Below are positions 20,338 through 43,712 of a stretch of DNA of 64,000 bases, one piece after another. This stretch comes from an uncultured Rikenella sp. (GTDB lineage: Bacteria; Bacteroidota; Bacteroidia; Bacteroidales; VadinHA17). Made by a program: the position numbers and the translations under genes. Numbering within the stretch: position 1 is the stretch's first letter; every line of letters starts with the position of its first letter. The notes below the pieces were generated by a model. It was not told the DNA's origin. It did no database searches and saw nothing but the letters and a program-made list of their open reading frames with translations. The stretch is from contig CAZWOC010000004.1 of assembly GCA_964635655.1 (NCBI GenBank), forward strand, positions 29,521 to 93,520. The letters are read 5' to 3'.

Positions 20338-23300
20338 ATGAAAAAAAGAGGTAAAGATCTGCCAGAACCCTTACACAGAGCCTTGAGAGAGCGACGGGTA
20401 ATTTTAAGGAAGTTATCCTTAATATTATTTCTTGTTGCATCCATGGGTCTTGTTGCATCGGGTATGCCAGAAATCACGATTCCGGAATCCGGAGATGGTG
20501 ATAATGATGTGCCTGTTCTTCAACTACAAGTTCAGGAAAAAACAGTAAGTGGTATTGTTACGGATACCGACAAACAACCCATGCCTGGTGTTACTATCCA
20601 GGTGAAGGGTACAACAATTGGTACACTGACAGATGTGTCAGGGGCATACCAGCTAACTCATGTGCCACCTAATTCGGTTCTCGTTGTATCATTCATTGGA
20701 ATGGCCACCAGGGAAATACCGGTTGGTGACCAGACAGAAATAAATGTTACTCTGAGTGAATCTACGCTAAATCTTGAGGAAGTAGTCGTTATCGGGTACG
20801 GAACTCAAAGGAGGCAGGAAGTAACCGGAGCAGTTGGTTCTGTTAAGGAGGATAGTTTTAACAAAGGCGTAATATTGTCTCCTGAACAATTGCTGCAAGG
20901 GAAGGTATCAGGTGTTAATATTACATCACGAAGCGGTGAACCCGGGGAAGCACAGACAATAGTCATCAGGGGACCCGGATCAGTAAGATCCGGAAGTGGC
21001 CCTTTGTATGTCATTGACGGGGTACCTATAGACAACACTTCATCAACTCCTTCTGTATCATCTGCAATAGGAACAGCCGGGGATTCAAATCCGCTTAACT
21101 TCCTGAACCCGGCTGACATTGCATCAATTGACGTTCTGAAAGATGCATCCTCGACAGCAATATATGGTTCCAGGGGAGCAAACGGCGTTATAATGATAAC
21201 GACGAAGAAGGGCTCCACGAATGAACAGCTCAATTACAGTACAAGCCTGTCAGTTTCACAGGTTGCCTCAAAACTTAGCGTACTGTCTACCGAGGAGTTC
21301 ATTGACCTTACAACAAAATATGGTAATCCTGCAATCCTGCAAGATTATGATACAGATTGGCTCGACCAGATATACCGCACAGCTTTTTCACAGAATCACA
21401 ATTTATCGTTTGGCGGTGGTTCGGAAAAGTCAAAGTACTATGCCTCAATAAGCTACCTGGATCAGAAAGGTGTTGTTGAGAAATCAGAGATGAAAAGATA
21501 TACGGGGAAAATAAGTGCCGAACAAAAATTTCTCAATGACAATGTAAATATTAAGTTCAATCTTACAGCAAGTCATGTCTGGAATAACTCACCACCTTCA
21601 GGTGATGGCGGTAATGCTAATGGTGAGCTGTTTACAAATGCTCTGAATGCCAATCCAACTTATCCCACCCATAATCCTGACGGAACAATATACCAGTTTC
21701 CCGACGGGCTGAATCCGCTTATGCTGCTCGATTTGTATACGGACTTCAGAACCACTGACCGCGTACTTGGCAATGTAGAAGCCTCTGTGAACCTGTTCAA
21801 AGGCTTGCAATATAAAATAAATGTGGCCCTTGACAATTCACTAAGTGAAAGAATCGGCCAGAGCAAGGCACACAACATCCCTGATCTTGCGAACAATAAT
21901 GGTAGGCTTAGCCAGGGTAACGTCCAGAACGGAAACCAAATTGTTGAAAACTATCTTACCTATGCTCTTCAGAAGGAAAAGCACAAACTTGATCTGTTGC
22001 TGGGTCACTCCTACCAGAGGTTTAAATACCAGTCAAGAGGTTGGAGCATTAACGGTTTCTCAACCACTGAGATAGAGCCTTATTACAATCCTTCAATCGG
22101 AACAACCCTGGATATAGCAAATAACAGGCCGTCAGGAAGTGCTACAATCAATGAATTACAGTCTTTCTTTAGCAGGGCTAATTACAATTTTGACGGCAAA
22201 TATATTTTAACTGCAACAGCCAGGATGGACGGGTCTTCAAAATTTGGAGGCAACAACCGGTATGCATTCTTCCCTTCGTTCGGGGCAGCCTGGCGAATTT
22301 CTGAAGAGGCATTTATGGCTGATGCTGATGCTGTAAACAATCTTACTCTCCGATTCGGATGGGGATTAACCGGAAACCAGGAGATACCCCCAAAAATAAC
22401 CAAGGCACAATTGACGGTCAGTACCGGGAATGCTGTGGGTTATCCTCTTGATGGAGTTACTATTGCCCCGGGATACAGCTTTGTCAGAATACCAAATAAG
22501 GACATCAGGTGGGAAGTCTCCCGGCAGGCTAATGTGGGCCTTGACTTTTCATTATTCAATGACAGGTTGTATGGAACACTGGATGGTTTTGACAAACTGT
22601 CAACAGACATTCTTTGGGAAACAACAACCGCAATAGATCCGATAACTCCGACCGGTTCCAACTGGAACAATTATGACATGAAAATCATCAACAGAGGTCT
22701 TGAACTTGCATTGGGATTCAGGTCAGAATACAGTGAAACTTTCCAGTGGGACTTCGGAGGAAACATCTCGTACATTTATAATACGGTAAAAGACTTACCA
22801 GTGTCAATCCTTCGGACAGGTTCATTAAGTGGCCCCGGACTGACATCAGTTGAAGTTAACGGTTATATGAACGGCCATCCGGTTGGAACTTTCTATATAC
22901 TGGAATACCTTGGCCTTGATGAAGACGGATTTAGTATTTTCAGAGACGCAAAGCCTGACGGAATAATAAATGATGACGACAGGGTTGTTGCAGGTTCTGC
23001 ACTGCCAAAAATCCAATATAACCTCTACGGGAGTGTTACTTACAAGAAAGTAGGCCTGGTATTGAATTTCAACGGTGCCGCAGGAAACAAGATATATAAC
23101 GAAACGGAAAACGCATGGCTTACTTATCCGATATTCCTTGCCGGTAACAACGTATCCAAATACGTGCTTGATAATGCAAACGAAAATCCTCTCAACTCAT
23201 CTATACCCTCAACAAGGTATCTTTATGACGGAGACTTTTTCAGGTTGAACAATGCTACGATATCTTATAGTCTTAGTAATACTATCCTGAATATCAAAAA

Positions 23301-23472
23301 TATTAACGTCTATGTTACCGGACAGAATTTGTTCTTAATAACAAAATACCCCGGTAATGACCCTGAAGTTGATACACCAAAATCTTCAGGTGGATTCAGA
23401 TCTTACGGTATTGACTATACCAGCTATCCCAAGTCAAGGACTTACATCCTCGGTCTGAGTATAACATTCTAA
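20338..23472 (+). CDS. susC: SusC/RagA-family TonB-dependent transporter (PUL 2)
   Basis: 1044 aa. Contains VSGIVTDTDKQPMPGVTIQV, VVIGYGTQRRQEVTGAV, IDVLKDASSTAIYGSRGANGVIMITTKKG and a C-terminal ...LGLSITF. Followed by a SusD-like gene. Confidence 0.95.
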   Translation: MKKRGKDLPEPLHRALRERRVILRKLSLILFLVASMGLVASGMPEITIPESGDGDNDVPVLQLQVQEKTVSGIVTDTDKQPMPGVTIQVKGTTIGTLTDVSGAYQLTHVPPNSVLVVSFIGMATREIPVGDQTEINVTLSESTLNLEEVVVIGYGTQRRQEVTGAVGSVKEDSFNKGVILSPEQLLQGKVSGVNITSRSGEPGEAQTIVIRGPGSVRSGSGPLYVIDGVPIDNTSSTPSVSSAIGTAGDSNPLNFLNPADIASIDVLKDASSTAIYGSRGANGVIMITTKKGSTNEQLNYSTSLSVSQVASKLSVLSTEEFIDLTTKYGNPAILQDYDTDWLDQIYRTAFSQNHNLSFGGGSEKSKYYASISYLDQKGVVEKSEMKRYTGKISAEQKFLNDNVNIKFNLTASHVWNNSPPSGDGGNANGELFTNALNANPTYPTHNPDGTIYQFPDGLNPLMLLDLYTDFRTTDRVLGNVEASVNLFKGLQYKINVALDNSLSERIGQSKAHNIPDLANNNGRLSQGNVQNGNQIVENYLTYALQKEKHKLDLLLGHSYQRFKYQSRGWSINGFSTTEIEPYYNPSIGTTLDIANNRPSGSATINELQSFFSRANYNFDGKYILTATARMDGSSKFGGNNRYAFFPSFGAAWRISEEAFMADADAVNNLTLRFGWGLTGNQEIPPKITKAQLTVSTGNAVGYPLDGVTIAPGYSFVRIPNKDIRWEVSRQANVGLDFSLFNDRLYGTLDGFDKLSTDILWETTTAIDPITPTGSNWNNYDMKIINRGLELALGFRSEYSETFQWDFGGNISYIYNTVKDLPVSILRTGSLSGPGLTSVEVNGYMNGHPVGTFYILEYLGLDEDGFSIFRDAKPDGIINDDDRVVAGSALPKIQYNLYGSVTYKKVGLVLNFNGAAGNKIYNETENAWLTYPIFLAGNNVSKYVLDNANENPLNSSIPSTRYLYDGDFFRLNNATISYSLSNTILNIKNINVYVTGQNLFLITKYPGNDPEVDTPKSSGGFRSYGIDYTSYPKSRTYILGLSITF

Positions 23473-23483
23473 TAATCAAGATC

Positions 23484-25136
23484 ATGAAAAAAACAATAAT
23501 ATCACTTTTAGTTGTCTTTTCCACGCTGGTCGCATGCACTGACCTGAATGAGGAAGTACTGGACACAGCCCTTGGTGATAATCTCCTTGAGGGAGAAGGA
23601 GCTGCTGATGGTGTGATGGCTCCTGTATACGCCAGGATGTTCGAACTGTTTAATAATCAGGAACACTACTTCCTTTGTCAGGAAGTAACAACTGATGAGT
23701 GCATTGTTCCTTACAGAGGCGGAACCGACTGGTATAACGGTGGCAGGTTGATTGAAATGTATCAGCATACCTGGACTGCTAACCATAACAACATTCGTCT
23801 TGTATGGTCTGAGCTGGTTTCCGGGATTGCAAAAGGCCTGATCGTCGGGCAAACCCTTGGAACTGACCACCCTTATTCTTATGAAGCTCTTGGTATGGTT
23901 GCTTTCTATAATTCAGTCCTGCTGGACCTTTTCGGAGTAGCATTTGAGAAAGATCCCAATGACTTTAATACAGGAAACATGTCAAGAGTTTTAAGAGGGC
24001 AGGAAGCTGTTGATTATATTATTGGTATCCTTGATGAGATAGAACCTCATCTCAAGACCAAAACTCAACTCGGGGAAGCCGGATCAACACGTTTCTCCTT
24101 ATCAGCAGCACATGCTTTAAGAGCCAGACTTTTACTGAATAAAGCAGTTTATGTGAACCGGTATGCTGATAGTTTCGAGTTCGCTGATGCAGACATGGAT
24201 GATGTAATAGATTACTGTGACCTGGTAATCAACTCCGGAAATTACTCCCTGGAAACTGAAGACTACTTCTCTATTTTCGACGTAGATAATCATAATCACC
24301 CGGAAATAATCTTTGCTCTCGACCAGAGACTTGAGGCAAACGGAACGAACAGATTTGCATGGTTTACACTCTCAAGAAATACAATCGGCTCAATAACCTT
24401 CCGTTCAACAGGAACTGACGGAGGTTCATGTACAAGCGACTTCTACCATACATGGGATGGAAATCATAATGATCCGAGATTCTATAAGGAGATCATTCCA
24501 CAGGACGGATCAGTAACCTCATGTCCTGCATCTCAGTATGCCCTGAACAGAGGATTTCTTCAGGGTCAGCAGTATGGCATTGTCCTGAATGAAGCCGGCA
24601 CAGATGTCAAGAAAAACCAAGATGGTACTCTGGCAATTGAAATGCTGTATAACAAAGCTCGAACAGGCGAACCAATAAATTATACGATTGATGTGGACCT
24701 GGAAGTTCATAAAGGACATTCAGATGGCGTCAGAGTGTTAAAATATGAGTTTGACCCTGAATCATCAAAGAATACAATGGGCAGGGTTGACATTCCTCTG
24801 TTCAGGCTTGCTGACATTTACCTCATGAGAGCAGAAGCAAACCTGCGTAAAGGATTCCCCGGCCTGGCATTGGATGACGTAAATGCAGTAAGGCTGGCAA
24901 GAGGAGTCTCTCAGCTTTCTTCAATCACTCTCGATGATCTCTTCAGGGAGAGAGGATTCGAACTGTACTGGGAACAGGTGAGAAGAACTGACATGATCAG
25001 GTTCGGGAAATTTGAAAATTCATGGACCTCAAAAACCAATGCTGACAAAAACAGGAGAATCTTCCCGATCCCGCAGACTGTCATTGATGCTACCAGTTCA
25101 ATGCCTGACTACATCGTTCAGAATCCCGGGTATTGA
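23484..25136 (+). CDS. susD: SusD/RagB-family lipoprotein (PUL 2)
   Basis: 550 aa with a lipoprotein signal (STLVAC). SusD-like C-terminus (ERGFELYWEQVRRTDMIRF). Confidence 0.9.
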   Translation: MKKTIISLLVVFSTLVACTDLNEEVLDTALGDNLLEGEGAADGVMAPVYARMFELFNNQEHYFLCQEVTTDECIVPYRGGTDWYNGGRLIEMYQHTWTANHNNIRLVWSELVSGIAKGLIVGQTLGTDHPYSYEALGMVAFYNSVLLDLFGVAFEKDPNDFNTGNMSRVLRGQEAVDYIIGILDEIEPHLKTKTQLGEAGSTRFSLSAAHALRARLLLNKAVYVNRYADSFEFADADMDDVIDYCDLVINSGNYSLETEDYFSIFDVDNHNHPEIIFALDQRLEANGTNRFAWFTLSRNTIGSITFRSTGTDGGSCTSDFYHTWDGNHNDPRFYKEIIPQDGSVTSCPASQYALNRGFLQGQQYGIVLNEAGTDVKKNQDGTLAIEMLYNKARTGEPINYTIDVDLEVHKGHSDGVRVLKYEFDPESSKNTMGRVDIPLFRLADIYLMRAEANLRKGFPGLALDDVNAVRLARGVSQLSSITLDDLFRERGFELYWEQVRRTDMIRFGKFENSWTSKTNADKNRRIFPIPQTVIDATSSMPDYIVQNPGY

Positions 25137-25178: not shown

Positions 25179-26972
25179 ATGGCAAAAATGAGTCGAAAGA
25201 CTTTCATAAAACAAACTTCTCTGGCAGGCATTTTGGCAATGAGCCCGATGGGTATCGGAGTCCTGAACGGGCAAAAGAAGTCATCCTCAAAAAAGGATAT
25301 TGACGAGAACCTCCTTAAGCGTCTTGCTGAAGGTAATGATAAGCAGGCAGATTCAATACTGAAGATGTACAGCGAAAATCCGGAAAGTTCTTATGGCTAC
25401 AGAAACTATACCGCAAATTTCGCTGTATTATCCGCAGCTTATTGCTGTCAGTTGTCAAAGTATTACCAGAACAAGACTCTGATAGTTACAATGGAGTCTA
25501 TTGTTGATGATCTTCTGAAAAACCAGAATCCGGACGGAACAATGGATGCCGGTAATCTGCAATCTCCTCCTGACACTGCATTTATGATGGAGAACCTTAT
25601 AAAGGGGACACATATACTGCTTCAGGATAAATCCAAAGAGCTGAACAGTGTCAAGGAAAAATCAAAACTGTTTCTTACCAAAGCAGCAAATACAATTGCA
25701 GAGGGAGGTATACATACACCAAACCACAGGTGGGCAGTCAGCTCCGTTCTGGCAAATGTCAATGCTCTTTATCCTGATCAGAAATATGTTGACAGAGCCA
25801 ATGACTGGCTGGGAGAGAAACCTTTCATCGATAATGACGGTGAATATTGCGAACGCAGCAAGAATTACGCCAGGGTGAACAATTCTGCCTTCATTGAGAT
25901 CGGCAGACTGCTTGACAAACCGGAACTATTTGACCTCGTCCGTAAAAATCTTGATCTGACATACTATCAGATGGAGCCAAACGGAGAAGTTATTACAAAT
26001 AATTCCCGTAGACAGGATCAGTTCTCTATTCAGAGTATTATGGAGTCATACCTGTTCTACAGATATCTTGCTATCCATGACAATGATGGAAAGTTAGCAT
26101 CAGTCGCAAAGACAATCGAGGCGCTTGACGGATTTGAAGAAGCAATAATTGACAGGTCATTACCCAGTTTTATGCATGAACCGCTTCTGCAGAAATATCT
26201 GCCAGAACCTGTTCTCATTCCGGTTGACTATGAGAAGGTTTACACTGATTCATCTCTGGTCAGAATAAGAAGAGGTAACACCACTACTACCCTTTTCGGC
26301 GGTAATGACTGGCCTCTGATTATTGCTTCCGGCAGATCCCATATTCCAAATTTCTTTGCTTACAGGAAAGGAGAGGCTATCCTCAGGTATATGAGATACT
26401 CAACCAGATTCTTCAGCACCGGCTATTTCCGTAGCCAGGGCCTCCGCCAGGAGGGTGACAGGTACGTTTTATTCCAGAGACTGGAAGTACCTTATTATCA
26501 TCCACTCCCGGCTGAATACAGGAATCCGAATGGAGATTATAAGCACTCTCCTAGTATCGATGACAGATTCTGGAGTAAGATGGATTTCGAACACCGTCCA
26601 ACTACAATGAAAATCCTGGAAACAACGATATCACTGGAAGAGGAGAAAGGCAGGAGCGAGCTTACTTTCCTGACCACAGGATCGGATAAGGTCCCGGTTA
26701 CAATGGAACTTTGTTTCGATGCAAAAGGTAAACTGACAGGTGTGACCAAAGCCAGCAACGGTACTGACAACTATTTCCTCGAAGAAGGATACGGTAAGTA
26801 TCAGGCAGGAAATGATGTTATCGAGTTCGGACCTGGAATCGTTTCACACAGGAGCATTCAGGGCCTTGAAGGTGAAAAATACAGCACACACTCAGGGAAC
26901 CTGAGGACACCGGGCCTGCACGTTTACCTAACGGGAATTACTCCATTTGAACATAAAATTGTCTTCTTCTGA
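25179..26972 (+). CDS. Exported protein of unknown function; possibly an alpha-toroid plus beta-sandwich polysaccharide-lyase-like fold
   Basis: 597 aa. Twin-arginine-like n-region (SRKTFIK) plus a hydrophobic stretch. The N-terminal half looks helix-rich and contains HTPNHRW, reminiscent of the N-H-x-x-W catalytic motif of toroid lyases. The C-terminal half looks beta-rich. I could not recognise a family with confidence. Confidence 0.3.
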   Translation: MAKMSRKTFIKQTSLAGILAMSPMGIGVLNGQKKSSSKKDIDENLLKRLAEGNDKQADSILKMYSENPESSYGYRNYTANFAVLSAAYCCQLSKYYQNKTLIVTMESIVDDLLKNQNPDGTMDAGNLQSPPDTAFMMENLIKGTHILLQDKSKELNSVKEKSKLFLTKAANTIAEGGIHTPNHRWAVSSVLANVNALYPDQKYVDRANDWLGEKPFIDNDGEYCERSKNYARVNNSAFIEIGRLLDKPELFDLVRKNLDLTYYQMEPNGEVITNNSRRQDQFSIQSIMESYLFYRYLAIHDNDGKLASVAKTIEALDGFEEAIIDRSLPSFMHEPLLQKYLPEPVLIPVDYEKVYTDSSLVRIRRGNTTTTLFGGNDWPLIIASGRSHIPNFFAYRKGEAILRYMRYSTRFFSTGYFRSQGLRQEGDRYVLFQRLEVPYYHPLPAEYRNPNGDYKHSPSIDDRFWSKMDFEHRPTTMKILETTISLEEEKGRSELTFLTTGSDKVPVTMELCFDAKGKLTGVTKASNGTDNYFLEEGYGKYQAGNDVIEFGPGIVSHRSIQGLEGEKYSTHSGNLRTPGLHVYLTGITPFEHKIVFF

Positions 26973-27068: not shown

Positions 27069-27105
27069 TGAATGAGTGAGATCTGTGATCTCACTCATTC
27101 TTTTT
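27069..27105 (+). terminator. Rho-independent terminator after the 597-aa gene
   Basis: Perfect 14-bp stem GAATGAGTGAGATC / GATCTCACTCATTC with a 3-nt loop, followed by TTTTTT. Confidence 0.85.
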
Positions 27106-27120: not shown

Positions 27121-28008
27121 CTACCCGGTGACCACATGGTTACCATTTTTATATGCCGATACATATTCGGTGGGCGTTACTTTCATTATTCTCTTGAACT
27201 GGTAATTAAAATGTGAAAGGTTATTGTAACCGCTCTCATATGAAGCATTCGAGATTGCAACATTCTCTTCTATCATCAGCTTGCATGCGTGACCTATCCT
27301 GATTTCGTTCAGGAAAGCGAACAGGGTCTTGCTGGTGTGCTTTTTGAAATACCTGCATAACGCTGTAGGGCTCATGTTTACAATTTTGCTGATATCTTCC
27401 AGACTGATCGGCTGTGTGAAATTTGTGACAAGAAATTCATGTATCTTGTTAAAACGGTAAAAATCATACGAGTTTAGCAGCTTTGAATATCCCAGACTTG
27501 ACTGATAGCTGTATTCGGCTGAACCGGCCATTATATCCAGCAGCAAAATTAACTCTGTTATGCGGTGTATACCTTTTACCCTGAAGATCTTTAACATCTG
27601 CTTCCCCAGAACCTCCCTGGACTTTCCATTAAACCTGATCCCCCGCTTTGATTTCTCCAGTAAATCCTTTATCGGGCCCATCTCGGGAGTATTTATAAAA
27701 TCTGCACCGAATATATCCCTGTTAAACTGAATTATAAGAGCTTTTATACCTTCCTTTATTGTACCATTCATATATTTGACATGGCTTTTCCACCAATGCG
27801 GAACATTCTCACCTATAATCGTAATATCACCGGCATTAAAACTGTTAATGCAATCGCCGATGTAACTGGTGCCCGAACTCTTTACCACATAAAGAATCTC
27901 AATTTCAGGATGAAAATGCCAGGGTACTGTAAAATGTGGTTTTTCTTCATCAAATATTATAACAGACTGTGATGGTGGCGTTACCAGCTTCTGATAAAAA
28001 GGTTTCAT
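27121..28008 (-). CDS. AraC-family transcriptional regulator with an N-terminal cupin sensor domain
   Basis: 295 aa. N-terminal cupin-like block (WHFHPEIEILYV) and a C-terminal AraC HTH (GYNNLSHFNYQFKRIMKVTPTEY). Divergent from kdgK. Confidence 0.85.
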   Translation of the reverse strand: MKPFYQKLVTPPSQSVIIFDEEKPHFTVPWHFHPEIEILYVVKSSGTSYIGDCINSFNAGDITIIGENVPHWWKSHVKYMNGTIKEGIKALIIQFNRDIFGADFINTPEMGPIKDLLEKSKRGIRFNGKSREVLGKQMLKIFRVKGIHRITELILLLDIMAGSAEYSYQSSLGYSKLLNSYDFYRFNKIHEFLVTNFTQPISLEDISKIVNMSPTALCRYFKKHTSKTLFAFLNEIRIGHACKLMIEENVAISNASYESGYNNLSHFNYQFKRIMKVTPTEYVSAYKNGNHVVTG

Positions 28009-28136
28009 ATTTATTGATTATTTGCATGAATTTTCTGTTGCCTGACAGAAAGGCTAATATAACATTATATGTAGATAAAAAAGAGATAATCTTGTAAAAA
28101 AACATTAACTATTTTTATTTTGAATGATATTTAATG

Positions 28137-34302: not shown

Positions 34303-35217
34303 ATGACAGTTGAAAAAACTAATGCAGCCAAAGTAGATAGCAAATGCAAGGTGCTTTTGAAGGCTTCCGGAGAAGATATATATCAGGACATGCCTTCTGA
34401 GAGAGCAGGGTGGAACCTATTGAATTTCAATGCAAGAGTTATTAAACCAGGGCAAGAATGGAACGGCAGCACCGGTAATAATGAGTATCTATTCGTGCTG
34501 ATGGGTGGCAATTTCGAAGCCATTACCTCCGCCGGAACCTGGAAAACAAAAAATGGTAGAAGAAATCCGTTCAGCGGATTGCCTCATGCTCTTTATCTTC
34601 CGCCACAAACTGAATTTGAAATCAATCCGGTTGGCGGTCCCCTTGATATAGCCTGTGGATGGACTCCTTCAGACAAAATATTTCCTGCCCATTTTATAAC
34701 CCCTGCAGATGTAGAAAACATGGGGATTGAGTTTCGCGGGGGAGACAATGCAAGCCGGCAGATAAACAGCATTTTACCTCCCGGTTCGCAATGCCACCGG
34801 CTGGTATGTGTTGAAGTATATACACCTTCAGGTAACTGGAGCTCCTTCCCTGCCCATAAACATGACAGGAGAAAAACAGATCCCCTGACAGGCAAGCTGA
34901 CGGAAGCTGATCTTGAAGAGATTTATTTTTATAAGACTGAGAAGCCACAGGCCTTTGCATACCAGAAAGTATATAATGATGACCGGAGTCTCAACGAACT
35001 GGCAGAGGCTCACAACAATGATATTGTAATGGTTCCTGAAGGTTACCACCCAGTGGTGGCATGTCACGGATACAACATCTACTACCTTAATTTTCTGGCC
35101 GGAAGTGATCAGAGCCTTGCAAGTACAGATGATCCTGATCATAAGTGGATTTACGGGACATGGAAGGGGATGGATCCAAGGTTACCAATGGTGACTTCTG
35201 ACATGAATGATGCCTGA
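34303..35217 (+). CDS. iolB: 5-deoxy-glucuronate isomerase (IolB; KduI/IolB cupin family)
   Basis: 304 aa. Cupin core with SFPAHKHD ... EEIYFYK ... GYHPV. Adjacent to iolD/iolA/iolE/iolG homologues. Confidence 0.7.
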   Translation: MTVEKTNAAKVDSKCKVLLKASGEDIYQDMPSERAGWNLLNFNARVIKPGQEWNGSTGNNEYLFVLMGGNFEAITSAGTWKTKNGRRNPFSGLPHALYLPPQTEFEINPVGGPLDIACGWTPSDKIFPAHFITPADVENMGIEFRGGDNASRQINSILPPGSQCHRLVCVEVYTPSGNWSSFPAHKHDRRKTDPLTGKLTEADLEEIYFYKTEKPQAFAYQKVYNDDRSLNELAEAHNNDIVMVPEGYHPVVACHGYNIYYLNFLAGSDQSLASTDDPDHKWIYGTWKGMDPRLPMVTSDMNDA

Positions 35218-36461: not shown

Positions 36462-38321
36462 ATGAAAATAACTGTAGGACAAGCTGTAATAAGATTCCTG
36501 AAATGTCAGTATGTGGAATTTGACGGAGAGGAAAAGCCGTTTTTCGCAGGTTGTCTTGGAATATTCGGTCATGGAAATGTTGCCGGAATAGGTGAAGGTC
36601 TGCTTGAGAATCCTGATTTCAGATATTACATCACCAGGAATGAACAGGCGTCAGTGCACATAGCAACAGCTTATGCTAAAATGAAAAACCGGCTGGGAAC
36701 CTTTGCCTGCACTTCATCTATAGGCCCCGGGGCCACCAATATGGTAACAGGGGCTGCCTGTGCCACTATTAACCGGATGCCTGTGCTGTTACTTCCGGGT
36801 GACATATTTGCGAGACGCAATGTTGCTCCCGTATTACAGCAGCTGGAATCACCGTCCTCACAGGATACATCAGTGAATGATTGTCTGAAACCGGTTTCCA
36901 GGTACTGGGACAGGATTGAGAGACCGGAGCAGCTTATTACTGCTTTACCGGAGGTCATGAGAGTCCTGACTTCACCTGCTGATACCGGGGCCGTCACACT
37001 CTCCCTGCCACAGGATGTCCAGGCTGAAGCCTTTGACTTCCCCGAAGAACTCTTTAGAAAAAGGGTATGGAGAATCCCCCGGCCAAGACCTGACACTGCC
37101 TTGCTGAACCGGGCTGCTTCCATGATAAGAGCCTCTGAAAAACCAGTTATTATTGCAGGCGGAGGTGTGCTGTACAGTGATGCCGTCAATATCCTGAAAA
37201 AATTTGTAGGGATGACAGGGATTCCTGTAGCAGAGACATTTGCAGGGAAAGGATCATTACCTTATGATCATTTATGCAACCTTGGTGCAGTTGGCGCAAC
37301 AGGCACTCCGGGAGCCAACGAAATAACACAGCAGGCTGACCTTGTAATAGGCATAGGCACCCGTTACAGTGATTTTACAACAGCTTCCAAAACTGCCTTC
37401 CAGAATCCGGATGTCAGGTTTATAAACATAAATGTCGCAGAGTTTGATTCCTACAAACATGGGGCTCTTCCCCTTACATCAGACGCAAGGGTATGTCTGG
37501 AAGAGTTATCAGAAATGCTGGAAGATTACAGGGTTCCGGAAAATTATCGTTCAAGGATAAAAGAACTGAACCAGGCATGGGACAAAACAGTAAGTGATCT
37601 CTGTAAGGTCACCGGCAATCTGCCGGTCTCTCAGGCAGAGGTAGTGGGTGTCGTGAACGAGTTTTCAGGGCCCCGTGACGTTGTACTTTGTGCCGCAGGA
37701 AGTCTCCCGGGAGACCTTCATAAACTATGGCGTACAGTTGATCCCAAAGGATTCCACCTTGAATATGGTTATTCAACAATGGGATATGAATGTGCAGCCG
37801 GAATAGGTGCAAGAATGGCAAGTCCTGACCGTGAAATCTATGTTATGGTTGGTGACGGGAACTACCTGATGATGAATAATGAGATTGTAACTGCAATTCA
37901 GGAAGGAATTAAAATTACAATAATACTGCTTAACAATAACGGATTTGGAAGCATAGGAAACCTGTCCCAGTCATTGGGAACTCAGCGCTTCGGCACCAGA
38001 TACCGGTACCGTAATGAAAAAACCGGGCAACTTGATGGTGCCATATTGCCGGTTGACTTTGCACAGAATGCACGCAGCCTTGGGGCATTCGTAATAGAAG
38101 CATCAGATATAGATTCACTTAGAAGTGCGCTGAAGGTGGCCCGGGCTCAGGACCGAACCACTGTAATCACCATTGAAACTGATTTGTATAAAAGCATCCC
38201 CGGTTACGGATGGTGGGAAGTTGCCGTCTCTGAAGTCTCAGAAATTGAGTCGGTCAGACTGGCTTACGATAATTACCTGGTAAATAAGAAAAAACAAAAA
38301 TACTTTCTTGGAAACGATTAA
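36462..38321 (+). CDS. iolD: 3D-(3,5/4)-trihydroxycyclohexane-1,2-dione acylhydrolase (IolD), ThDP-dependent
   Basis: 619 aa with the ThDP-binding motif GDGNYLMMNNEI. Length and context match IolD. Confidence 0.8.
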   Translation: MKITVGQAVIRFLKCQYVEFDGEEKPFFAGCLGIFGHGNVAGIGEGLLENPDFRYYITRNEQASVHIATAYAKMKNRLGTFACTSSIGPGATNMVTGAACATINRMPVLLLPGDIFARRNVAPVLQQLESPSSQDTSVNDCLKPVSRYWDRIERPEQLITALPEVMRVLTSPADTGAVTLSLPQDVQAEAFDFPEELFRKRVWRIPRPRPDTALLNRAASMIRASEKPVIIAGGGVLYSDAVNILKKFVGMTGIPVAETFAGKGSLPYDHLCNLGAVGATGTPGANEITQQADLVIGIGTRYSDFTTASKTAFQNPDVRFININVAEFDSYKHGALPLTSDARVCLEELSEMLEDYRVPENYRSRIKELNQAWDKTVSDLCKVTGNLPVSQAEVVGVVNEFSGPRDVVLCAAGSLPGDLHKLWRTVDPKGFHLEYGYSTMGYECAAGIGARMASPDREIYVMVGDGNYLMMNNEIVTAIQEGIKITIILLNNNGFGSIGNLSQSLGTQRFGTRYRYRNEKTGQLDGAILPVDFAQNARSLGAFVIEASDIDSLRSALKVARAQDRTTVITIETDLYKSIPGYGWWEVAVSEVSEIESVRLAYDNYLVNKKKQKYFLGND

Positions 38322-38332
38322 CAATTTCTATT

Positions 38333-39805
38333 ATGGCTTCAAAAATAAAGAATTACATAAACGGTCAGTGGATCGAATCAAAGGGGACACAGTACTTTGA
38401 TGTAATCAACCCTGCAACCTCGGAATGCCTTGCGAAGGTACCGGCAGGCTCTCATGAAGATGTAGATTATGCGTCAGAATCAGCTCACAATGCATGGAGT
38501 GGCTGGAAGAATACTCCTGCCGTAAAAAGAGTCCAGTACCTGTTCCGGATGAAACAGATACTCGAAGACAACGTTGATGAGATCGCTGCAATCTGTACAA
38601 AAGAAAGCGGAAAGACCTTCTCCGAATCAAAAGCTGAGATGGTCAGGGCTGTTGAAAATATTGAGGTAGCCTGTAATGTTCCAAAACTCATTCAAAGTGA
38701 CTTTTCGGAGAATATAGCAACAGGCATCGATGAATTCTATATCAGGCAACCTCTCGGAGTCGGGGCGTGCATTGCTCCCTTCAATTTTCCTATAATGATT
38801 CCTTTCTGGTTCATGCCATACGCTATTGCCTGCGGCAATACTTATATTGTAAAACCCTCTGAGAAGGTTCCTCTTACCATGACCCGTATCTTCGAATTGT
38901 TCGAAGCAGTAAACCTGCCTGCGGGAGTATTGAATATGGTCCACGGAGGAAGGGAGACGGTGGATTCAATCCTGGAGAACAAACTTATACCTGCCATCAG
39001 TTTTGTAGGTTCAACTATAGTTGCAAAACACATTTACCAGACCGGCGTGAGCCATGGCAAACGGATTCAGGCCCAGGGCGGAGCAAAAAACCCTGTGGTT
39101 GTAATGCCTGATGCTGATGAGGATACTGCAGTGCGAATCATTGCTGACAGTGCCTTCGGTTGTGCAGGCCAAAGATGCCTTGCCGCTTCGGTTGTGATAA
39201 CGGTAGGCAATACCGGAAAAGAATTTGCTGATAAGATCGTTAAAGCAGCAAAGGCCAAAAAGGTAGGAAACGGTCTTGATGAGGGAGTCGAGATGGGACC
39301 TGTCATTACTGCTGAAAGTAAACAGCGAATCGAAAAACTTATTATAAAAGGACTGGACGACGGCGGGAAAATACTCCTTGACGGAAGAAACATCAAAGTA
39401 TCCGGATATGAAACAGGTAATTTCATCGGACCGACGGTAATTGAACTGGCCAACACCAATAATGAAATCTATAACACAGAAGTATTCGGACCGGTCCTCT
39501 GTCTCGTTCATGCCGACAGCCTTGACAAAGCCATTGAACTTGTAAATGCCAGCCGTTATGGCAATTCTGCCTGCATATTTACCAACAGTGGTAATGCTGC
39601 AAGGAAATTCAGGCATGAAGTATTAGCCGGGAATGTAGGTATAAATATAGGTATAGCTGCTCCGATGGCCTTTTTCCCCTTCAGCGGGTGGAAAGAGAGC
39701 TTCTTCGGTGATTTGCACGGGCAGTCTATGCATGCAATTGAATTTTATACCCAGACGAAAGTCGTTATTGAACGCTGGCATGATGAATGGGCAAGAAAAT
39801 TCTAA
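38333..39805 (+). CDS. iolA: CoA-acylating methylmalonate/malonate-semialdehyde dehydrogenase (IolA/MmsA)
   Basis: 490 aa aldehyde dehydrogenase with the catalytic Cys block FGCAGQRCLA. The C-terminus (ESFFGDLHGQSMHAIEFYTQTK) is typical of MmsA. Confidence 0.8.
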   Translation: MASKIKNYINGQWIESKGTQYFDVINPATSECLAKVPAGSHEDVDYASESAHNAWSGWKNTPAVKRVQYLFRMKQILEDNVDEIAAICTKESGKTFSESKAEMVRAVENIEVACNVPKLIQSDFSENIATGIDEFYIRQPLGVGACIAPFNFPIMIPFWFMPYAIACGNTYIVKPSEKVPLTMTRIFELFEAVNLPAGVLNMVHGGRETVDSILENKLIPAISFVGSTIVAKHIYQTGVSHGKRIQAQGGAKNPVVVMPDADEDTAVRIIADSAFGCAGQRCLAASVVITVGNTGKEFADKIVKAAKAKKVGNGLDEGVEMGPVITAESKQRIEKLIIKGLDDGGKILLDGRNIKVSGYETGNFIGPTVIELANTNNEIYNTEVFGPVLCLVHADSLDKAIELVNASRYGNSACIFTNSGNAARKFRHEVLAGNVGINIGIAAPMAFFPFSGWKESFFGDLHGQSMHAIEFYTQTKVVIERWHDEWARKF

Positions 39806-39853: not shown

Positions 39854-40753
39854 ATGATTAAAGTAGCCAATGCACCCTGCTCATGGGGTGTCCTTGAATT
39901 CGAGCTTGAGCAAGAATCAGCCGGATATGAACAAGTCCTTGATGAGATCAAATCAACCGGTTATTCCGGTACTGAACTCGGAGATTGGGGATTTATGCCT
40001 ACCGATCCACCCGCTTTAAGACAAGAGCTGGATAAAAGAACCCTGACTCTTGTCGGTGCCTTTGTACCGGTCTTCCTGAAAAACAAATCTGCCCATCCTG
40101 AGGGTATTGCAACCGCTGTAAAAATTGCAGGATTAATGGCCGACGCCGGTTTCCCTGAGGCATTTATTGTCCTTGCCGACAATAATGGCACGGTTAAAGA
40201 ACGCACCCTCAACGCCGGAAGAGTTACTGACTCAATGGGATTGTCTTCCGGGGAATGGAAGATTTTTGCTCGAGGGGCAGAGGAAGTTGCAAGGCAGGTT
40301 AAAAACGAAACAGGTCTCCGTACCGTTTTCCATCATCACTGTGCAGGCTATGTTGAAACACCCAGAGAAATTGAAACACTTCTCAGTCTCACGGACCCTT
40401 CTCTTCTCGGCCTGGTTCTTGATATGGGCCATTATGCCTTCGGAGGAGGAGATCCGCTTGAAGCCCTGAAGAAATACAGGGAACGTATCTGGCATATACA
40501 TTATAAGGATTGTGAACCCACGATTGCTGACAGGTCCAGGAATCAGAGGTGGAACTATTTCAAATCGATTGGAAATGGGGTATTCTGCGAACTTGGCAAA
40601 GGTTCTGTTGATTTTAAGTCTATTACTGCCGAACTAAAAGCCAGAAAATACTCCGGATGGATTGTCGTTGAACAGGATGTCCTCCCTGGAATGGGAAATC
40701 CCAAACAGTGTGCTCTCCGTAACAGGCAATATCTCAACTCAATCGGTCTGTAA
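39854..40753 (+). CDS. iolE: Xylose-isomerase-like TIM-barrel protein, inosose dehydratase (IolE)-like
   Basis: 299 aa. Pattern APCSWG ... FHHHCAGYVE ... DMGH ... HIHYKD parallels the IolE pattern APIGW ... YHHHMG ... DTGH ... HVHFKD. Confidence 0.6.
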   Translation: MIKVANAPCSWGVLEFELEQESAGYEQVLDEIKSTGYSGTELGDWGFMPTDPPALRQELDKRTLTLVGAFVPVFLKNKSAHPEGIATAVKIAGLMADAGFPEAFIVLADNNGTVKERTLNAGRVTDSMGLSSGEWKIFARGAEEVARQVKNETGLRTVFHHHCAGYVETPREIETLLSLTDPSLLGLVLDMGHYAFGGGDPLEALKKYRERIWHIHYKDCEPTIADRSRNQRWNYFKSIGNGVFCELGKGSVDFKSITAELKARKYSGWIVVEQDVLPGMGNPKQCALRNRQYLNSIGL

Positions 40754-40783: not shown

Positions 40784-41803
40784 ATGGCAAAATTAAAAAT
40801 TGGTGTTATCGGTACAGGACGGATCGGGAAAGTCCATATCGCAACATTGGTGCAGAGTGTCCCGCAGGCTGAAGTAGCAGCCGTAGCTGACATTGATCTT
40901 AATTCAGCAAAACAGGTAGCTGAAAAATTTGGCGTCATGTCTGTTACTGATCATCCCGATGAAATAATAGCAAATAAGGAAATTGATGCCGTCGCCATCT
41001 GCTCCTCAACAGATACACATGCACGCTACATCATAGAAGCAGCCAAGGCGGGCAAGCATATCTTCTGCGAGAAACCTGTGGATCTGTCTATCAGGGTGAT
41101 ACAAGACTCAATAGAAGCAACTTCAAGGGCAGGCGTCAAACTCATGCCTGGATTCAACCGTCGCTTTGATCCGAATTTCATGAAATTGAGACAGCTGGTT
41201 TCAGAGGGCGAAGTTGGTGAGCCGCACATTCTGAAGATTACATCCCGTGATCCGGCACCTCCCCCGGCAAAATACAGTGCAGTCTCAGGCGGAATGTTTA
41301 TGGATATGACTATTCATGACTTTGATATGGCCAGATTCATGATTGCCAGTGAGGTTGTGGAAGTTTTTGCAAAAGCTGCCGTACTGGTAGACCCGGAATT
41401 GGGAAAAGCAGGAGATGTAGACACTGCCGTCATAACCCTGACATTTGCCAACGGTGCAATTGGGGTGATTGATAACAGCCGGAAGGCTGTCTATGGATAT
41501 GATCAGCGGGTAGAGGTTTTTGGATCAAAGGGAATGTGTTGTGCAGACAATAATTATCCTGATAATCACCAATTATACAATAAAGCAGGTGTCCATGGCT
41601 CCCTGCCGTTGAATTTCTTCATGGACAGATACACAGAAGCATACGCAAATGAAATGAAGGCGTTCTGCAATGCAGTTCTGAATGACCTGCCTCTGCAGGT
41701 ATCCGGCCATGACAGCCTGATGTCTGCTGCAATTGCATTTGCAGCCAGGAAATCTGTCCTGGAGAATAGGATTGTTAAACTGACTGAGATAATTAAGTGC
41801 TAG
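40784..41803 (+). CDS. iolG: Inositol 2-dehydrogenase (Gfo/Idh/MocA family)
   Basis: 339 aa with the Rossmann motif GVIGTGRIGKVH and the FCEKP motif. Located in the iol cluster. Confidence 0.75.
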   Translation: MAKLKIGVIGTGRIGKVHIATLVQSVPQAEVAAVADIDLNSAKQVAEKFGVMSVTDHPDEIIANKEIDAVAICSSTDTHARYIIEAAKAGKHIFCEKPVDLSIRVIQDSIEATSRAGVKLMPGFNRRFDPNFMKLRQLVSEGEVGEPHILKITSRDPAPPPAKYSAVSGGMFMDMTIHDFDMARFMIASEVVEVFAKAAVLVDPELGKAGDVDTAVITLTFANGAIGVIDNSRKAVYGYDQRVEVFGSKGMCCADNNYPDNHQLYNKAGVHGSLPLNFFMDRYTEAYANEMKAFCNAVLNDLPLQVSGHDSLMSAAIAFAARKSVLENRIVKLTEIIKC

Positions 41804-42013: not shown

Positions 42014-42856
42014 ATGAAAACCATAGTAGAAATCCGATATGCCGCACATCCGGGTGATGTAAAACATTGGGATAGTGAGCGCATCCGAAAGGAACACCTG
42101 ATACAGGACCTCTTTGAAAAAAATACAGTTAAAATGGTATACTCACTGTATGACCGGATGATCGCCGGAGGAGCCATGCCTGCAGGAGAATCACTCAAAC
42201 TCGAAGCTATTGATGAGATAAAGGCTCCATACTTCCTTCACCGACGTGAACTTGGTATTTATAATGTCGGAGGAAAGGGAACCGTGAAGGTTGACGATTC
42301 CCTGTATCCCCTTGATTTCAAGGAAGCTCTCTATGTTGGAAGCGGTGACCGCGAAGTGATCTTTGAAAGCGATGACAAGTCTAATCCTGCGCTTTTCTAT
42401 TTCTGTTCAACTCCGGCTCACCGGAGTTACCCTGATAAAAAAATAACCAAAAATGATGCTATTTCAGTTGAGCTTGGCTCAGCCGAGGCGTCAAACCACA
42501 GGGTGATAAACAAGATGGTCGTGAACCAGGTACTGGAAACATGCCAGCTTCAGATGGGCATGACCGAGCTGAAGCCGGGAAGTGTCTGGAATACAATGCC
42601 TCCGCATACACACAGCAGACGCATGGAGGTATATTTTTACTTTGAAGTACCTGAAGGTGATACTGTATGCCATTTCATGGGCGAGCCTACCGAAACAAGG
42701 GTAATATGGATGAAAAACAACGAAGCAGTCCTGTCACCTCAATGGTCAATTCATGCTGCTGCTGCCACATCGTGCTATACTTTTATATGGGGTATGGGTG
42801 GAGAGAACCTGGATTACGGCGATCAGGACTTCCTGAAACCAGGCGATCTCAGATAG
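42014..42856 (+). CDS. kduI: 5-dehydro-4-deoxy-D-glucuronate isomerase (KduI), copy 2
   Basis: 280 aa, collinear with copy 1 over its full length. Shares a 41-bp identical DNA run (42536-42576 = 3958-3998). Confidence 0.85.
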   Translation: MKTIVEIRYAAHPGDVKHWDSERIRKEHLIQDLFEKNTVKMVYSLYDRMIAGGAMPAGESLKLEAIDEIKAPYFLHRRELGIYNVGGKGTVKVDDSLYPLDFKEALYVGSGDREVIFESDDKSNPALFYFCSTPAHRSYPDKKITKNDAISVELGSAEASNHRVINKMVVNQVLETCQLQMGMTELKPGSVWNTMPPHTHSRRMEVYFYFEVPEGDTVCHFMGEPTETRVIWMKNNEAVLSPQWSIHAAAATSCYTFIWGMGGENLDYGDQDFLKPGDLR

Positions 42857-42926
42857 CAGAACATGCTACAACCGGTTGCGGTATACTTTGAATTACTATT
42901 AACAATATTATTATTAAAACTAAAGC

Positions 42927-43712
42927 ATGAGTAAAGACTTATTTAATCTGAAAGGACAAATTGCACTTGTTACAGGCGCTTCCTATGGAATCGGCATGGC
43001 TCTTGCCAAAGCTTTTGCACATGCAGGAGCCACAATAGTTTTCAATGATCTTTTCCCAGAAAAGGTGAAATCAGCTCTTGATATCTATAAAAGTGAAGGT
43101 ATCAATGCACATGGTTATGTTTTCGATGTGACGAATGAAGAAGAGGCAAAATCCTATGTTGAAAAGATAACCCATGAAGTTGGCCCTGTAACTATCCTTT
43201 GCAATAATGCAGGCATTATAAAAAGGATTCCTGCTCTTGAAATGAGTGCATCGGAATTCCGGGAAGTTATTGAAGTTGACCTCACAGGTCCATTCATTAT
43301 GTCAAAAGCGGTTGCCCCCGGAATGATAAAAAACGGAGGTGGTAAGATTATCAACATCTGTTCCATGATGAGTGAGTTGGGACGTGAGACCGTGTCAGCA
43401 TACGCAGCTGCAAAGGGAGGCCTGAAAATGCTTACCAAAAACCTGGCCTGTGAGTGGGCTGAATTCAATATACAGGTAAACGGCATAGGCCCCGGTTATA
43501 TTGCCACACCCCAGACACAGCCTCTGCGCACAGAAGGACATCCGTTTAATTCGTTTATTATCGGTCGCACCCCTGCTGCCAGGTGGGGAACACCTGAAGA
43601 CCTGTGCGGACCGGCTCTTTTCCTCGCCTCTGCTGCCTCAGACTTTGTAAACGGCCATATCCTTTATGTTGACGGTGGAATACTTGCATATATCGGCAAG
43701 CAGCCTAAATGA
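42927..43712 (+). CDS. kduD: KduD-type SDR, copy 2
   Basis: 261 aa, collinear with copy 1, with the same TGASYGIG and YAAAKGG motifs. Confidence 0.8.
   Translation: MSKDLFNLKGQIALVTGASYGIGMALAKAFAHAGATIVFNDLFPEKVKSALDIYKSEGINAHGYVFDVTNEEEAKSYVEKITHEVGPVTILCNNAGIIKRIPALEMSASEFREVIEVDLTGPFIMSKAVAPGMIKNGGGKIINICSMMSELGRETVSAYAAAKGGLKMLTKNLACEWAEFNIQVNGIGPGYIATPQTQPLRTEGHPFNSFIIGRTPAARWGTPEDLCGPALFLASAASDFVNGHILYVDGGILAYIGKQPK

Follow-up and report, generated by a model that had tools for sequence, protein, structure and literature searches.

A candidate polysaccharide-utilization locus for a uronosyl-inositol glycan in an uncultured Rikenella sp.

We analyzed a 64,000-nucleotide stretch of DNA from an uncultured Rikenella sp. 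(contig CAZWOC010000004.1; this whole stretch is called the window). A 23-kb block of genes at 20338–43797 is, in our judgment and with slightly better than even confidence, one horizontally acquired, AraC-controlled polysaccharide-utilization locus (PUL) that takes up a uronosyl-inositol glycan and breaks it down. The block combines a SusC–SusD pair, a 597-residue protein of no annotated family (U597), enzymes of unsaturated-uronate metabolism and an inositol (iol) operon. The original prediction had weighed a single uronosyl-inositol system against a simple juxtaposition of two loci. The single system is favored because U597 has a predicted lyase fold, because all genes share one island of third-codon-position GC content (GC3), and because two independent comparative-genomic anchors support it, a census of U597 loci and a scan on a long sodium:solute symporter (SSS); close relatives and the accessory genes of related loci point the same way. 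The substrate is most likely a soluble glycan built on a core of uronic acid in glycosidic linkage to myo-inositol. The head groups of plant glycosyl-inositol-phosphoceramides (GIPCs), Hex(N/NAc)-α1,4-GlcA-α1,2-Ins (Hex, hexose; GlcA, glucuronic acid; Ins, inositol), would be the best candidate.

Predicted fold and genomic linkage of U597

U597 has no match in Pfam, NCBIfam or a PDB sequence-profile search, and 31 members of its family give no Pfam signal even at E ≤ 10. Its relatives form 3207 clusters at E ≤ 0.001, and at least 593 stretches of GTDB species genomes encode one (593 of the 599 pattern matches listed). An AlphaFold2 model built on a 31-sequence alignment (pLDDT 82.4, pTM 0.82) consists of a helical domain (residues ~43–340) and a β-sandwich (~350–597), which together give the two-domain toroid-plus-sandwich architecture. 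The 21 best Foldseek matches of the model in the PDB are all uronate lyases, with E values of 1e-9 to 1e-6, a probability of 1.00 and a TM-score of about 0.5. They comprise PL17 alginate lyases, PL35 GAGases, PL15 exo-heparinase, PL33 (including BT4410), PL12 heparinase III and PL8 chondroitin/hyaluronate lyases (PL, polysaccharide lyase). U597 resembles the solved members (Alg17c, 4ok2; exoHep, 6ljl; heparinase III, 4fnv; BT4410, 8r70) in both domain architecture and fold. The lyases of these six families all act by β-elimination at uronates. The heparinase-type enzymes cut GlcN(Ac)-α1,4-uronate bonds (GlcN, glucosamine), which is the linkage type of the GIPC core. However, U597 shares only ~8–13% identity with these lyases, without similarity at the level of hidden Markov models, and its genomic association is with inositol catabolism, not with alginate or glycosaminoglycan (GAG) genes. 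The invariant residues of the family are the adjacent Asn182–His183, Arg226, Tyr230 and the adjacent Tyr439–Tyr440, a set that may resemble the Asn-His/Arg/Tyr catalytic sets of PL5, PL15 and PL17. The original prediction had seen no recognizable secreted glycoside hydrolase (GH), PL or carbohydrate esterase (CE) in the locus. This holds at the sequence level, but structure prediction now gives U597 a polysaccharide-lyase fold. On the model we propose that U597 is the founding member of an unannotated polysaccharide-lyase-fold family, and that it probably acts as a lyase.

The N-terminus of U597 resembles a twin-arginine translocation (Tat) signal (SRKTFIK) and has no lipoprotein cysteine. The pattern R-x-x-F-[LIVM]-[KRQ] occurs in 62 of 80 family members, with a second residue that is rarely the Arg of the consensus S/T-R-R-x-F-L-K. 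Since a true twin arginine is seldom present, U597 is described here as a probable exported protein.

For the census we assembled 80 species-genome loci, counted the 64 that span at least 15 kb, and recorded features within 10 kb of U597. MIOX is present in 29 of the 64 and strict iol genes in seven, so either one or the other is found in 36 (56%). When Metallophos, PI-PLC and NagX are counted along with MIOX and iol, 42 loci show at least one such inositol-phosphate signature. We estimate that a gene with 0–1 copy in a ~5-Mb genome would have a chance of less than 1% of falling within 10 kb. SusCD occurs near U597 in 50 loci, DUF4861 in 19 and the GH105 subfamily of the window in ten. The linkage between U597 and inositol genes appears in several distinct architectures, through two non-homologous routes (MIOX or iol) and in many genera. 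For example, four distant genera have SusC-SusD-(Metallophos)-U597-DUF4861 beside MIOX, LacI, PI-PLC, GH88, SSS, GH92, GH89 and GH95. In four loci (L018, L024, L027 and L054), SusC-SusD-(Metallophos)-U597-DUF4861-GH105-IolJ-IolB-IolC-IolD-IolA-IolE form one tight co-directional cluster; IolC scores above its cutoff in loci of the L018 type, and the class II aldolase there belongs to the ketose-bisphosphate family. All seven iol-type loci carry DUF4861 together with the window's GH105 subfamily, which has the common motif NTPLHLLQPDYP.

The accessory genes of the related loci are also informative. Recurrent partners include Metallophos phosphoesterases, GDPD, PI-PLC (joined in one case to a phosphoesterase domain), GH92, GH28, GH43, GH51, GH27, GH29 and GH95, and PIG-L is found as well. 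A NagX-like transmembrane glucosamine N-acetyltransferase (family F9; E 2e-15 to human HGSNAT) is present in 18 loci, eight of which also have a GH89 NAGLU; examples are L009 (11771–12994) and L012 (6125–7243). The lysosomal HGSNAT and NAGLU pair removes α1,4-linked GlcN from a uronate. The NagX-like and GH89 proteins are the counterpart, in related U597 loci, of the lysosomal trimming of heparan sulfate. The bacterial pair is embedded in PULs and absent from the window's own island, and it serves here only to hint at the substrate. A 407-residue partner ("X407") had been considered as a divergent DUF4861; it proved to be this NagX/HGSNAT-like acetyltransferase, and the census counts were corrected.

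Among Acidobacteriota, the neighbors of U597 homologs are GFO/IDH/MocA oxidoreductases and a xylose-isomerase-like TIM-barrel protein, both types with Tat signals (L074, 7526–9907; L090, 3932–5224), and these loci may represent a periplasmic oxidative variant. BLAST had labeled the neighbors "IolG/IolE"; given their Tat-type N-termini they are probably periplasmic GFO and TIM-barrel enzymes, and for that reason they were left out of the strict iol count.

An inositol-glycan system in which U597 is not a uronate-O4 lyase must also be weighed. In that case U597 would be a hydrolase or other enzyme on a lyase-like scaffold (one that cuts GlcA–inositol or a bond next to it, for example) or a periplasmic binding or processing protein, and GH105 and the Kdu enzymes would serve lyase products made elsewhere. 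The likeness of U597 to lyases is one of fold, at a TM-score of ~0.5, with no sequence link to any PL family; GH127 is also among the fold matches, and a Tat-like signal is unusual for lyases. Furthermore, many MIOX-type loci have NagX, GH89, GH28 and GH92 but no GH105 or DUF4861 within 10 kb, so U597 might not make an unsaturated uronide, or GH105 might lie elsewhere in those genomes. On the other hand, the best fold matches are uronate lyases without exception and the GH127 matches are clearly poorer (TM-score about 0.3), and the invariant Asn-His and Arg/Tyr residues are reminiscent of the PL5, PL15 and PL17 sets. DUF4861, which marks the metabolism of unsaturated uronates (see below), comes directly after U597 in 19 loci, and no other candidate in the window could make the substrate that the signal-less GH105 needs. 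We therefore regard a non-lyase role as unlikely.

Layout, composition and regulation of the block

All 16 open reading frames (ORFs) of the originally noted block (20338–43712) are present at the expected coordinates and strands, and the predicted gene order from susC to kduD is borne out. The suffix -2 distinguishes island genes from copies elsewhere in the window.

20338–23472, plus: susC-2, TonB-dependent outer-membrane transporter (SusC/RagA, TIGR04056, 765 bits; GC3 0.41)
23484–25136, plus: susD-2, surface glycan-binding partner (PF07980)
25179–26972, plus: U597, probably exported 597-residue protein, proposed from its model as a lyase cutting at uronate O4
27070–27100, no strand: hairpin with a 14-bp stem, bidirectional terminator between the convergent U597 and araC genes
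27121–28008, minus: araC, regulator with cupin sensor domain (PF12833, PF00165, Cupin_2)
28195–29232, plus: kdgK, PfkB kinase of the 2-dehydro-3-deoxygluconokinase type (kinase half of NF041633, 505 bits)
29382–30716, plus: GH105-2, predicted cytoplasmic unsaturated uronyl hydrolase (PF07470, 266 bits)
30778–32970, plus: long-form SSS, 730-residue sodium:solute symporter (PF00474)
33039–33848, plus: DUF4861-2, short signal-less form (PF16153)
34303–35217, plus: iolB, 5-deoxy-glucuronate isomerase (TIGR04378, 286 bits, cutoff 205)
35339–36430, plus: divergent TAL/FSA-family gene in the IolC/IolJ slot (PF00923)
36462–38321, plus: iolD (TIGR04377, 904 bits, cutoff 715)
38333–39805, plus: iolA, CoA-acylating (methyl)malonate-semialdehyde dehydrogenase (TIGR01722, 588 bits, cutoff 448)
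39854–40753, plus: iolE-like inosose dehydratase (TIGR04379, 207 bits, under the cutoff of 290)
40784–41803, plus: iolG, inositol 2-dehydrogenase (TIGR04380, 455 bits, cutoff 355)
42014–42856, plus: kduI-2 (NF002091, 413 bits, cutoff 250)
42927–43712, plus: kduD-2, short-chain dehydrogenase/reductase (gluconate-5-dehydrogenase model PRK07097, 458 bits)
~43751–43797, plus: intrinsic terminator ending the kduI-2/kduD-2 transcript (TGTTCCCGG, 16-nt loop, CCGGGAACA, then ATCTTTTTATTT; read by eye)

The assignments of the original prediction stand for IolB, IolD, IolG, IolA and KduI, which all score above their NCBIfam cutoffs. Two are weaker: the IolE-like protein stays under its cutoff, although the position of its gene is conserved across all TAL-type operons, and the dehydrogenase beside kduI scores above the PRK07097 threshold but under the KduD equivalog cutoffs. 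Its presumed KduD role rests on adjacency to kduI, which is seen in both copies of the pair. The signal-less state noted for GH105 and the DUF4861-like protein is confirmed in that neither GH105-2 nor DUF4861-2 has a hydrophobic N-terminus. The terminator noted after kduD is also there, as a hairpin followed by a T-run; the inverted-repeat scan missed its 16-nt loop.

The genes susC-2 and susD-2 lie 11 bp apart and form the adjacent SusC-like and SusD-like pair that defines a PUL; the linked AraC regulator, GH105-2 and the lyase-fold U597 supply the regulator and enzymes. The same position is held by an AraC regulator in the Bacteroidales-type relatives L011, L012, L092 and L139. SusC-2 is 34–46% identical to the SusCs beside U597 elsewhere, compared with 30% to SusC-1 of the window. 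SusC-2 and SusD-2 are each 46% identical to the pair of the iol-type Lacihabitans locus L054, against ~30% to SusCD-1, and the median score of SusD-2 with U597-linked SusDs is 151 bits, against 57 bits for SusD-1. Judged by these comparisons of sequence, SusCD-2 is orthologous to the U597-linked SusCD pairs.

The block also stands out in composition. Every gene from susC-2 to kduD-2 has a GC3 of 0.37–0.46, a range shared by uxaE, whereas the flanking genes all have 0.52–0.63; the uronate and cyclitol branches therefore lie in one compositional island. The island has its own kduI and kduD copies, 73% (KduI-2 to KduI-1) and 81% (KduD-2 to KduD-1) identical to the resident ones. It is embedded in a resident pectin/hexuronate region. 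Upstream, 3.4–19.5 kb is an ordinary pectin PUL with kduI-1, kduD-1, a full-length DUF4861 gene, HTCS, GH105-1, SusCD-1, GH28 and CE8, and downstream are uxaE, uxaC, eda and a major-facilitator-superfamily transporter. No tRNA or mobile-element relics were found at the island borders.

Linkage between the two halves is kept in close relatives. Exact U597 copies on metagenome contigs have an identical gene order. In a 93% relative (L011) the order is unchanged to the contig end at the TAL gene, and in an 87% relative (L139) it is unchanged through kduD. In a 77% relative (L138) the genes are rearranged into SSS-DUF4861-KduI-KduD-GH43-DUF5916-IolB-TAL-IolD-IolA-IolE-IolG-UxaE-UxaC-Eda, which is still one co-directional cluster. 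Separation of the blocks in relatives, which the original prediction had named as evidence against it, is thus not seen at 93, 87 or 77% identity. The DUF5916 protein and GH43 that part kduD from iolB in this 77% relative (L138, 6061–8385) could be added components of the system.

A shared 13-mer hints at common regulation. It has three sites:

19808–19820, plus: AATGATATTTAAT, candidate shared operator, 530 bp upstream of susC-2
28123–28135, plus: second copy of AATGATATTTAAT, in the araC–kdgK intergenic region
34193–34205, minus: third copy of AATGATATTTAAT with one mismatch, in the 454-bp gap between DUF4861-2 and iolB

The whole 64-kb window has no further match when up to one mismatch is allowed, and all three sites are in candidate promoter regions; the expected count is 0.16, and none of 100 shuffles reaches three. 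Because the 13-mer was derived as a k-mer shared by two of the sites, only the third is independent, and for this site we estimate p ~0.01. The 93% relative keeps the copy in the iolB gap at an unchanged offset, with two mismatches. We take the 13-mer as suggestive of one operator for the three promoter regions. A strong hairpin parts U597 from the convergent araC, and the 454-bp gap ahead of iolB has no predicted terminator on the plus strand. The sigma-70 promoter scan was uninformative (40 found, 35 expected); Bacteroidota promoters fall outside its coverage.

Several features at the edges of the block and beyond complete the description of the window:

44208–45479, plus: uxaE (PF16257; GC3 0.455, island-like)

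By its composition uxaE is part of the island, and it is probably not essential to it; uxaC and eda are flank-like in composition. In the 87% relative uxaE is missing, with short ORFs remaining, and in the 77% relative it is present. At the 3′ edge of the island, a 60-residue basic ORF (43934–44116, minus strand) occupies part of the 495 bp that separate kduD-2 from uxaE. Upstream, the longest ORF of SusD-1 (15079–17187) overlaps the end of susC-1 (12156–15200) by ~120 bp, and its true start is probably near 15226. Lastly, downstream of the hexuronate genes and a short-chain dehydrogenase/reductase, ORFs for a LarA-N-domain protein and a D-2-hydroxyacid dehydrogenase/PdxB-like protein overlap by ~100 bp (50110–52555).

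The long symporter, its uronidase partners and the cyclitol branch

GH105-2 matches PDB entry 3k11 with an E value of 1e-134 and YteR with 5e-24. It reads WIDDLYM where wild-type YteR reads WLDGLYM and the 2gh4 chain, presumably the D143N catalytic mutant of YteR, reads WLNGLYM, so that GH105-2 has Asp at the position in which the two YteR chains differ. Its subfamily is that of the GH105 beside U597 and iol genes in ten other loci; these have a signal peptide, whereas the window copy has none. This difference parallels a difference in the symporter. In the genomes with signal-bearing GH105 and DUF4861 the SSS is of a short form (~530–550 residues), and in the window the signal-less pair accompanies the 730-residue SSS. 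Locus L072, from a metagenome-assembled genome of another phylum, shows this pattern again: its U597 has a Tat-like N-terminus, its GH105 and GH28 both lack signals, and its SSS has 715 residues.

As an independent anchor, we used the long SSS in a metagenome scan that yielded 42 loci, 25 of them at least 10 kb. A signal-less GH28-family gene, confirmed by Pfam, is directly upstream of the SSS in 27 of the 42. In 13 of the 25 longer loci the flanks of this GH28–SSS pair carry either a canonical iol operon or MIOX together with GH89 and NagX; some of the long-SSS loci also have a PIG-L-family de-N-acetylase. Inositol genes thus accompany both anchors, U597 (MIOX or iol in 36/64 loci) and the long SSS (13/25). 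Loci L096, L106, L110–L113, L115, L118, L119 and L131 have the pair of signal-less GH28 and 715–730-residue SSS with no U597 or GH105. The GH28–long SSS loci look like a hydrolytic alternative for the uronosyl-inositol core. One locus (L113) has a short SSS inside the iol operon and a separate long SSS beside GH28, so the long form is not simply a carrier of inositol. Most simply read, the long SSS would import a uronosyl-inositol and a cytoplasmic uronidase would split it: GH28 if the uronate is saturated, GH105 if it comes from a lyase. The lytic route would then be the one that the window encodes.

DUF4861-2 matches its profile partially (positions 116–351 of 380). A truncated pseudogene was considered and rejected, since the 270–290-residue form is conserved in Flavobacterium and Prolixibacteraceae: in 13 Flavobacterium loci it is directly after U597, and in Prolixibacteraceae it is directly after GH88. 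The AlphaFold2 model, of moderate quality (pLDDT 70), is a mutarotase-like β-supersandwich with a putative aldose 1-epimerase as the top fold match. In the cultured Prolixibacteraceae Draconibacterium and Maribellus (L136, 8795–10855; L137, 8806–10858), whose loci have no inositol genes, the short DUF4861 is always right after GH88. DUF4861 appears to be a general, uncharacterized partner of unsaturated-uronyl hydrolases. BT3233, a DUF4861 protein, is required for growth of B. thetaiotaomicron on three GAGs (PMC8121099). Partnership with GH88, this requirement on GAGs and the mutarotase-like fold together tie DUF4861 to the metabolism of unsaturated uronates, and as such a marker it favors a lyase role for the gene that precedes it.

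The cyclitol branch resembles the canonical iol system of Bacillus subtilis and Salmonella in its co-directional genes for IolG, an IolE(-like) protein, IolD, IolB and IolA. The canonical system also has the IolC kinase and the IolJ aldolase, in whose place the window has the divergent TAL/FSA-family gene. Pfam and NCBIfam searches found no canonical IolC or IolJ in the block: the sole PfkB kinase is KdgK, which scores merely 103 bits with the IolC model (cutoff 300), and there is no class II aldolase. This gap had not been pointed out in the original prediction. The TAL-family protein matches PF00923 and stays under all NCBIfam equivalog cutoffs. Its Schiff-base Lys motif is kept (MIIKIPVT, compared with VMIKIPAT of 3r5e), and the conserved catalytic Glu is replaced by Gln (SIQTDP, compared with SIEVDP and SLEVSP of solved transaldolases). 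Fructose-6-phosphate aldolase also has Gln at this position. The gene is a fixed member of SSS-TAL-IolB-IolD-IolA-IolE-IolG operons of uncultured Bacteroidales, none of which has IolC or IolJ. The protein is conserved at >72% identity across hundreds of clusters (L091, 10001–11089; L093, 10001–11074; L092, 10001–11089). In L092 and L012 the TAL–iol operon follows AraC-SusC-SusD, with NagX-like, GDPD, Metallophos and GH88 genes nearby.

From its position and motifs, the TAL-family enzyme probably fills the IolC/IolJ gap. By analogy it would cleave or transfer the dihydroxyacetone unit of unphosphorylated 5-dehydro-2-deoxygluconate to leave malonate semialdehyde for IolA. The gene is a candidate for an inositol-pathway shortcut that needs no kinase. 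The analogy is to transaldolase-dependent sulfoglycolysis (BmSF-TAL, PDB 8bc3), where a TAL-family enzyme replaces a kinase and an aldolase by moving a C3 ketol unit of an acidic ketohexose analog. However, the window protein has only distant similarity to the sulfofructose transaldolase (E 4e-5), and its proposed substrate is a carboxylate, not a sulfonate. We found no description of a transaldolase in iol catabolism in the literature searched. Clusters of iol genes were reported in 3% of Bacteroidetes species, with none in Bacteroidaceae or Prevotellaceae (PMC9430895).

Two independent loci in juxtaposition would offer another explanation of the block. A small PUL for unsaturated oligosaccharides of pectin/rhamnogalacturonan I (RG-I) or GAGs (SusCD-2, U597, KdgK, GH105-2, SSS, DUF4861-2 and KduI/KduD) would then stand beside an independent free-inositol operon (iolB-TAL-iolD-A-E-G). 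In its favor, the TAL–iol operon occurs alone in L091 and L093, self-sufficient with its own 602-residue SSS; DUF4861–GH88 pairs occur without inositol genes; the 454-bp gap separates the two halves; the island is surrounded by pectin/hexuronate genes; and unsaturated rhamnogalacturonan is the classical substrate of GH105 enzymes. Further observations weigh against one uronosyl-inositol system: no inositol gene is within 10 kb in 28 of the 64 U597 loci, the 13-mer is data-derived and its kdgK site is not conserved in the 93% relative, and the ~57% identity of GH105-2 to an uncharacterized structural-genomics protein does not indicate its aglycone. Against juxtaposition stand the linkage of U597 to inositol genes, which recurs in 36 of the 64 loci with several architectures and two unrelated catabolic routes, the gap-free fused co-directional clusters in four genera, and the independent linkage of the long SSS to iol or MIOX. 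Both halves also share one GC3 island, their linkage outlasts the rearrangement in the 77% relative, and kduI-2/kduD-2 are downstream of the iol genes, so that uronate genes bracket the cyclitol genes. Because the linkage of U597 and the SSS to inositol genes is recurrent, the island is single and the relatives keep the halves together, we consider juxtaposition very unlikely.

Proposed pathway, candidate substrate and implications

As one uronosyl-inositol system, the locus would work as follows. SusC-2 and SusD-2, whose families are clear, would import the oligosaccharide. Periplasmic U597, going by its fold, would β-eliminate the sugar at O4 of the uronate to leave Δ4,5-uronosyl-inositol, and the 730-residue SSS, paired as it is with signal-less uronidases and inositol genes, would carry this product into the cytoplasm. 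GH105-2, a family member with Asp at the YteR position, would hydrate the double bond to give 5-dehydro-4-deoxy-glucuronate and, as the presumed aglycone, myo-inositol; the mutarotase-like DUF4861-2 would possibly help it. KduI-2, KduD-2 and KdgK, with the flanking Eda, would convert the uronate to pyruvate and glyceraldehyde 3-phosphate, and IolG, IolE, IolD and IolB would convert inositol to 5-dehydro-2-deoxygluconate. Finally, the TAL/FSA-family enzyme would split off or transfer a C3 ketol unit to yield malonate semialdehyde, which IolA would turn into acetyl-CoA. That this whole sequence belongs to one locus for a uronosyl-inositol glycan seems to us a little more probable than its contrary.

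The locus is similar to the lyase PULs of Bacteroides for pectin/RG-I and GAGs in its SusCD pair, a lyase that would leave a Δ4,5 end, GH88/GH105 enzymes, KduI/KduD/KdgK/Eda and the DUF4861 accessory protein. It differs in several parts. The lyase candidate is in no family recognizable by CAZy or Pfam, GH105 and DUF4861 have lost their signal peptides, a dedicated long SSS is present, the predicted aglycone is inositol, and the cyclitol operon is embedded between uronate genes. On the structural model we predict a lyase-based PUL type whose enzyme family is new and whose class of substrate has not been described before.

Plant GIPCs are built as Hex(N/NAc)-α1,4-GlcA-α1,2-Ins-1-P-ceramide and a series decorated with mannose (Man), arabinose (Ara) and galactose (Gal). 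The accessory gene inventory of the related U597 loci matches this structure. Fungal and plant phospholipases release soluble Man-GlcA-Ino-P, GlcA-Ino-P, GlcA-Ino (Ino, inositol) and a larger series from plant membranes, together with pectin oligosaccharides (PMC11496612), and such joint release would explain the location of the island in a pectin region. A fungal GIPC phospholipase C (B. cinerea BCIN07g04350; PMC11496612) supplies the upstream step, the release of soluble Hex-GlcA-Ins-P. The PI-PLC and GDPD products of related U597 loci may act like it, although the fungal enzyme is of the eukaryotic sphingomyelinase type and the catabolism of the glycans that it releases is not described. 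The island itself has no phosphatase or phospholipase, a further point on the opposing side; it may use dephosphorylated or pre-processed head groups, or depend on unlinked genes or other organisms.

The same architecture could also serve another inositol glycoconjugate, such as fungal GIPCs, glycosylphosphatidylinositol (GPI)-anchor glycans (GlcN-α1,6-Ins), actinobacterial phosphatidylinositol mannosides (PIMs) or mycothiol, or bacterial inositol sphingolipids. GH92 α-mannosidases, PI-PLC, NagX with GH89 and the PIG-L de-N-acetylase would also suit structures of the GPI, PIM or GlcN-Ins type. However, the conserved core of the loci is uronate-specific (lyase fold, GH105 or GH28, DUF4861, KduI/KduD), and to our knowledge these alternative glycoconjugates have no uronic acid. 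Moreover, GH51, GH43 and GH27 fit the Ara and Gal decorations of plant GIPCs, and the island has a plant-pectin context. We therefore think such a substrate quite unlikely. A more specific proposal with plant GIPCs as the substrate is that U597 is a new PL family specific for the Hex(N/NAc)-α1,4-GlcA linkage, and that its loci are the first known bacterial GIPC-catabolic pathway, with MIOX and iol variants, lyase and GH28 variants and the TAL-family shortcut. This we put forward tentatively, at somewhat less than even confidence. The literature searched on GIPC or inositol PULs, on microbial pathways consuming GIPCs and on DUF4861 function gave no earlier description of such a system.

GIPCs are the dominant plant sphingolipids and a large share of plant plasma-membrane lipid. 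In soil, plant litter, digesters and the guts of herbivores they therefore amount to a large reserve of carbon, phosphorus and inositol. If the proposed reading is true, a large family of hypothetical proteins without a Pfam domain gains a function and becomes a candidate new PL family, and roles follow for DUF4861, the long SSS subfamily and the cytoplasmic GH28 and GH105 variants. The occurrence of MIOX and iol genes inside PULs would be accounted for too, with two interchangeable end-games, MIOX in aerobes and iol in anaerobes, and two ways to open the GlcA–inositol core, by lyase and GH105 or by cytoplasmic GH28. Replacement of IolC and IolJ by a TAL-family enzyme would give a textbook pathway a new branch, and surveys requiring iolC (PMC9430895) would undercount inositol users among Bacteroidales. 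Cultured carriers of U597 loci include Echinicola soli, Pontibacter pamirensis, Flavobacterium glycines, F. fluvii, Belliella alkalica, Lacibacter cauensis and Spirosoma endophyticum. In summary, the system would extend through the U597 loci of hundreds of Bacteroidota species and of some Acidobacteriota and KSB1.

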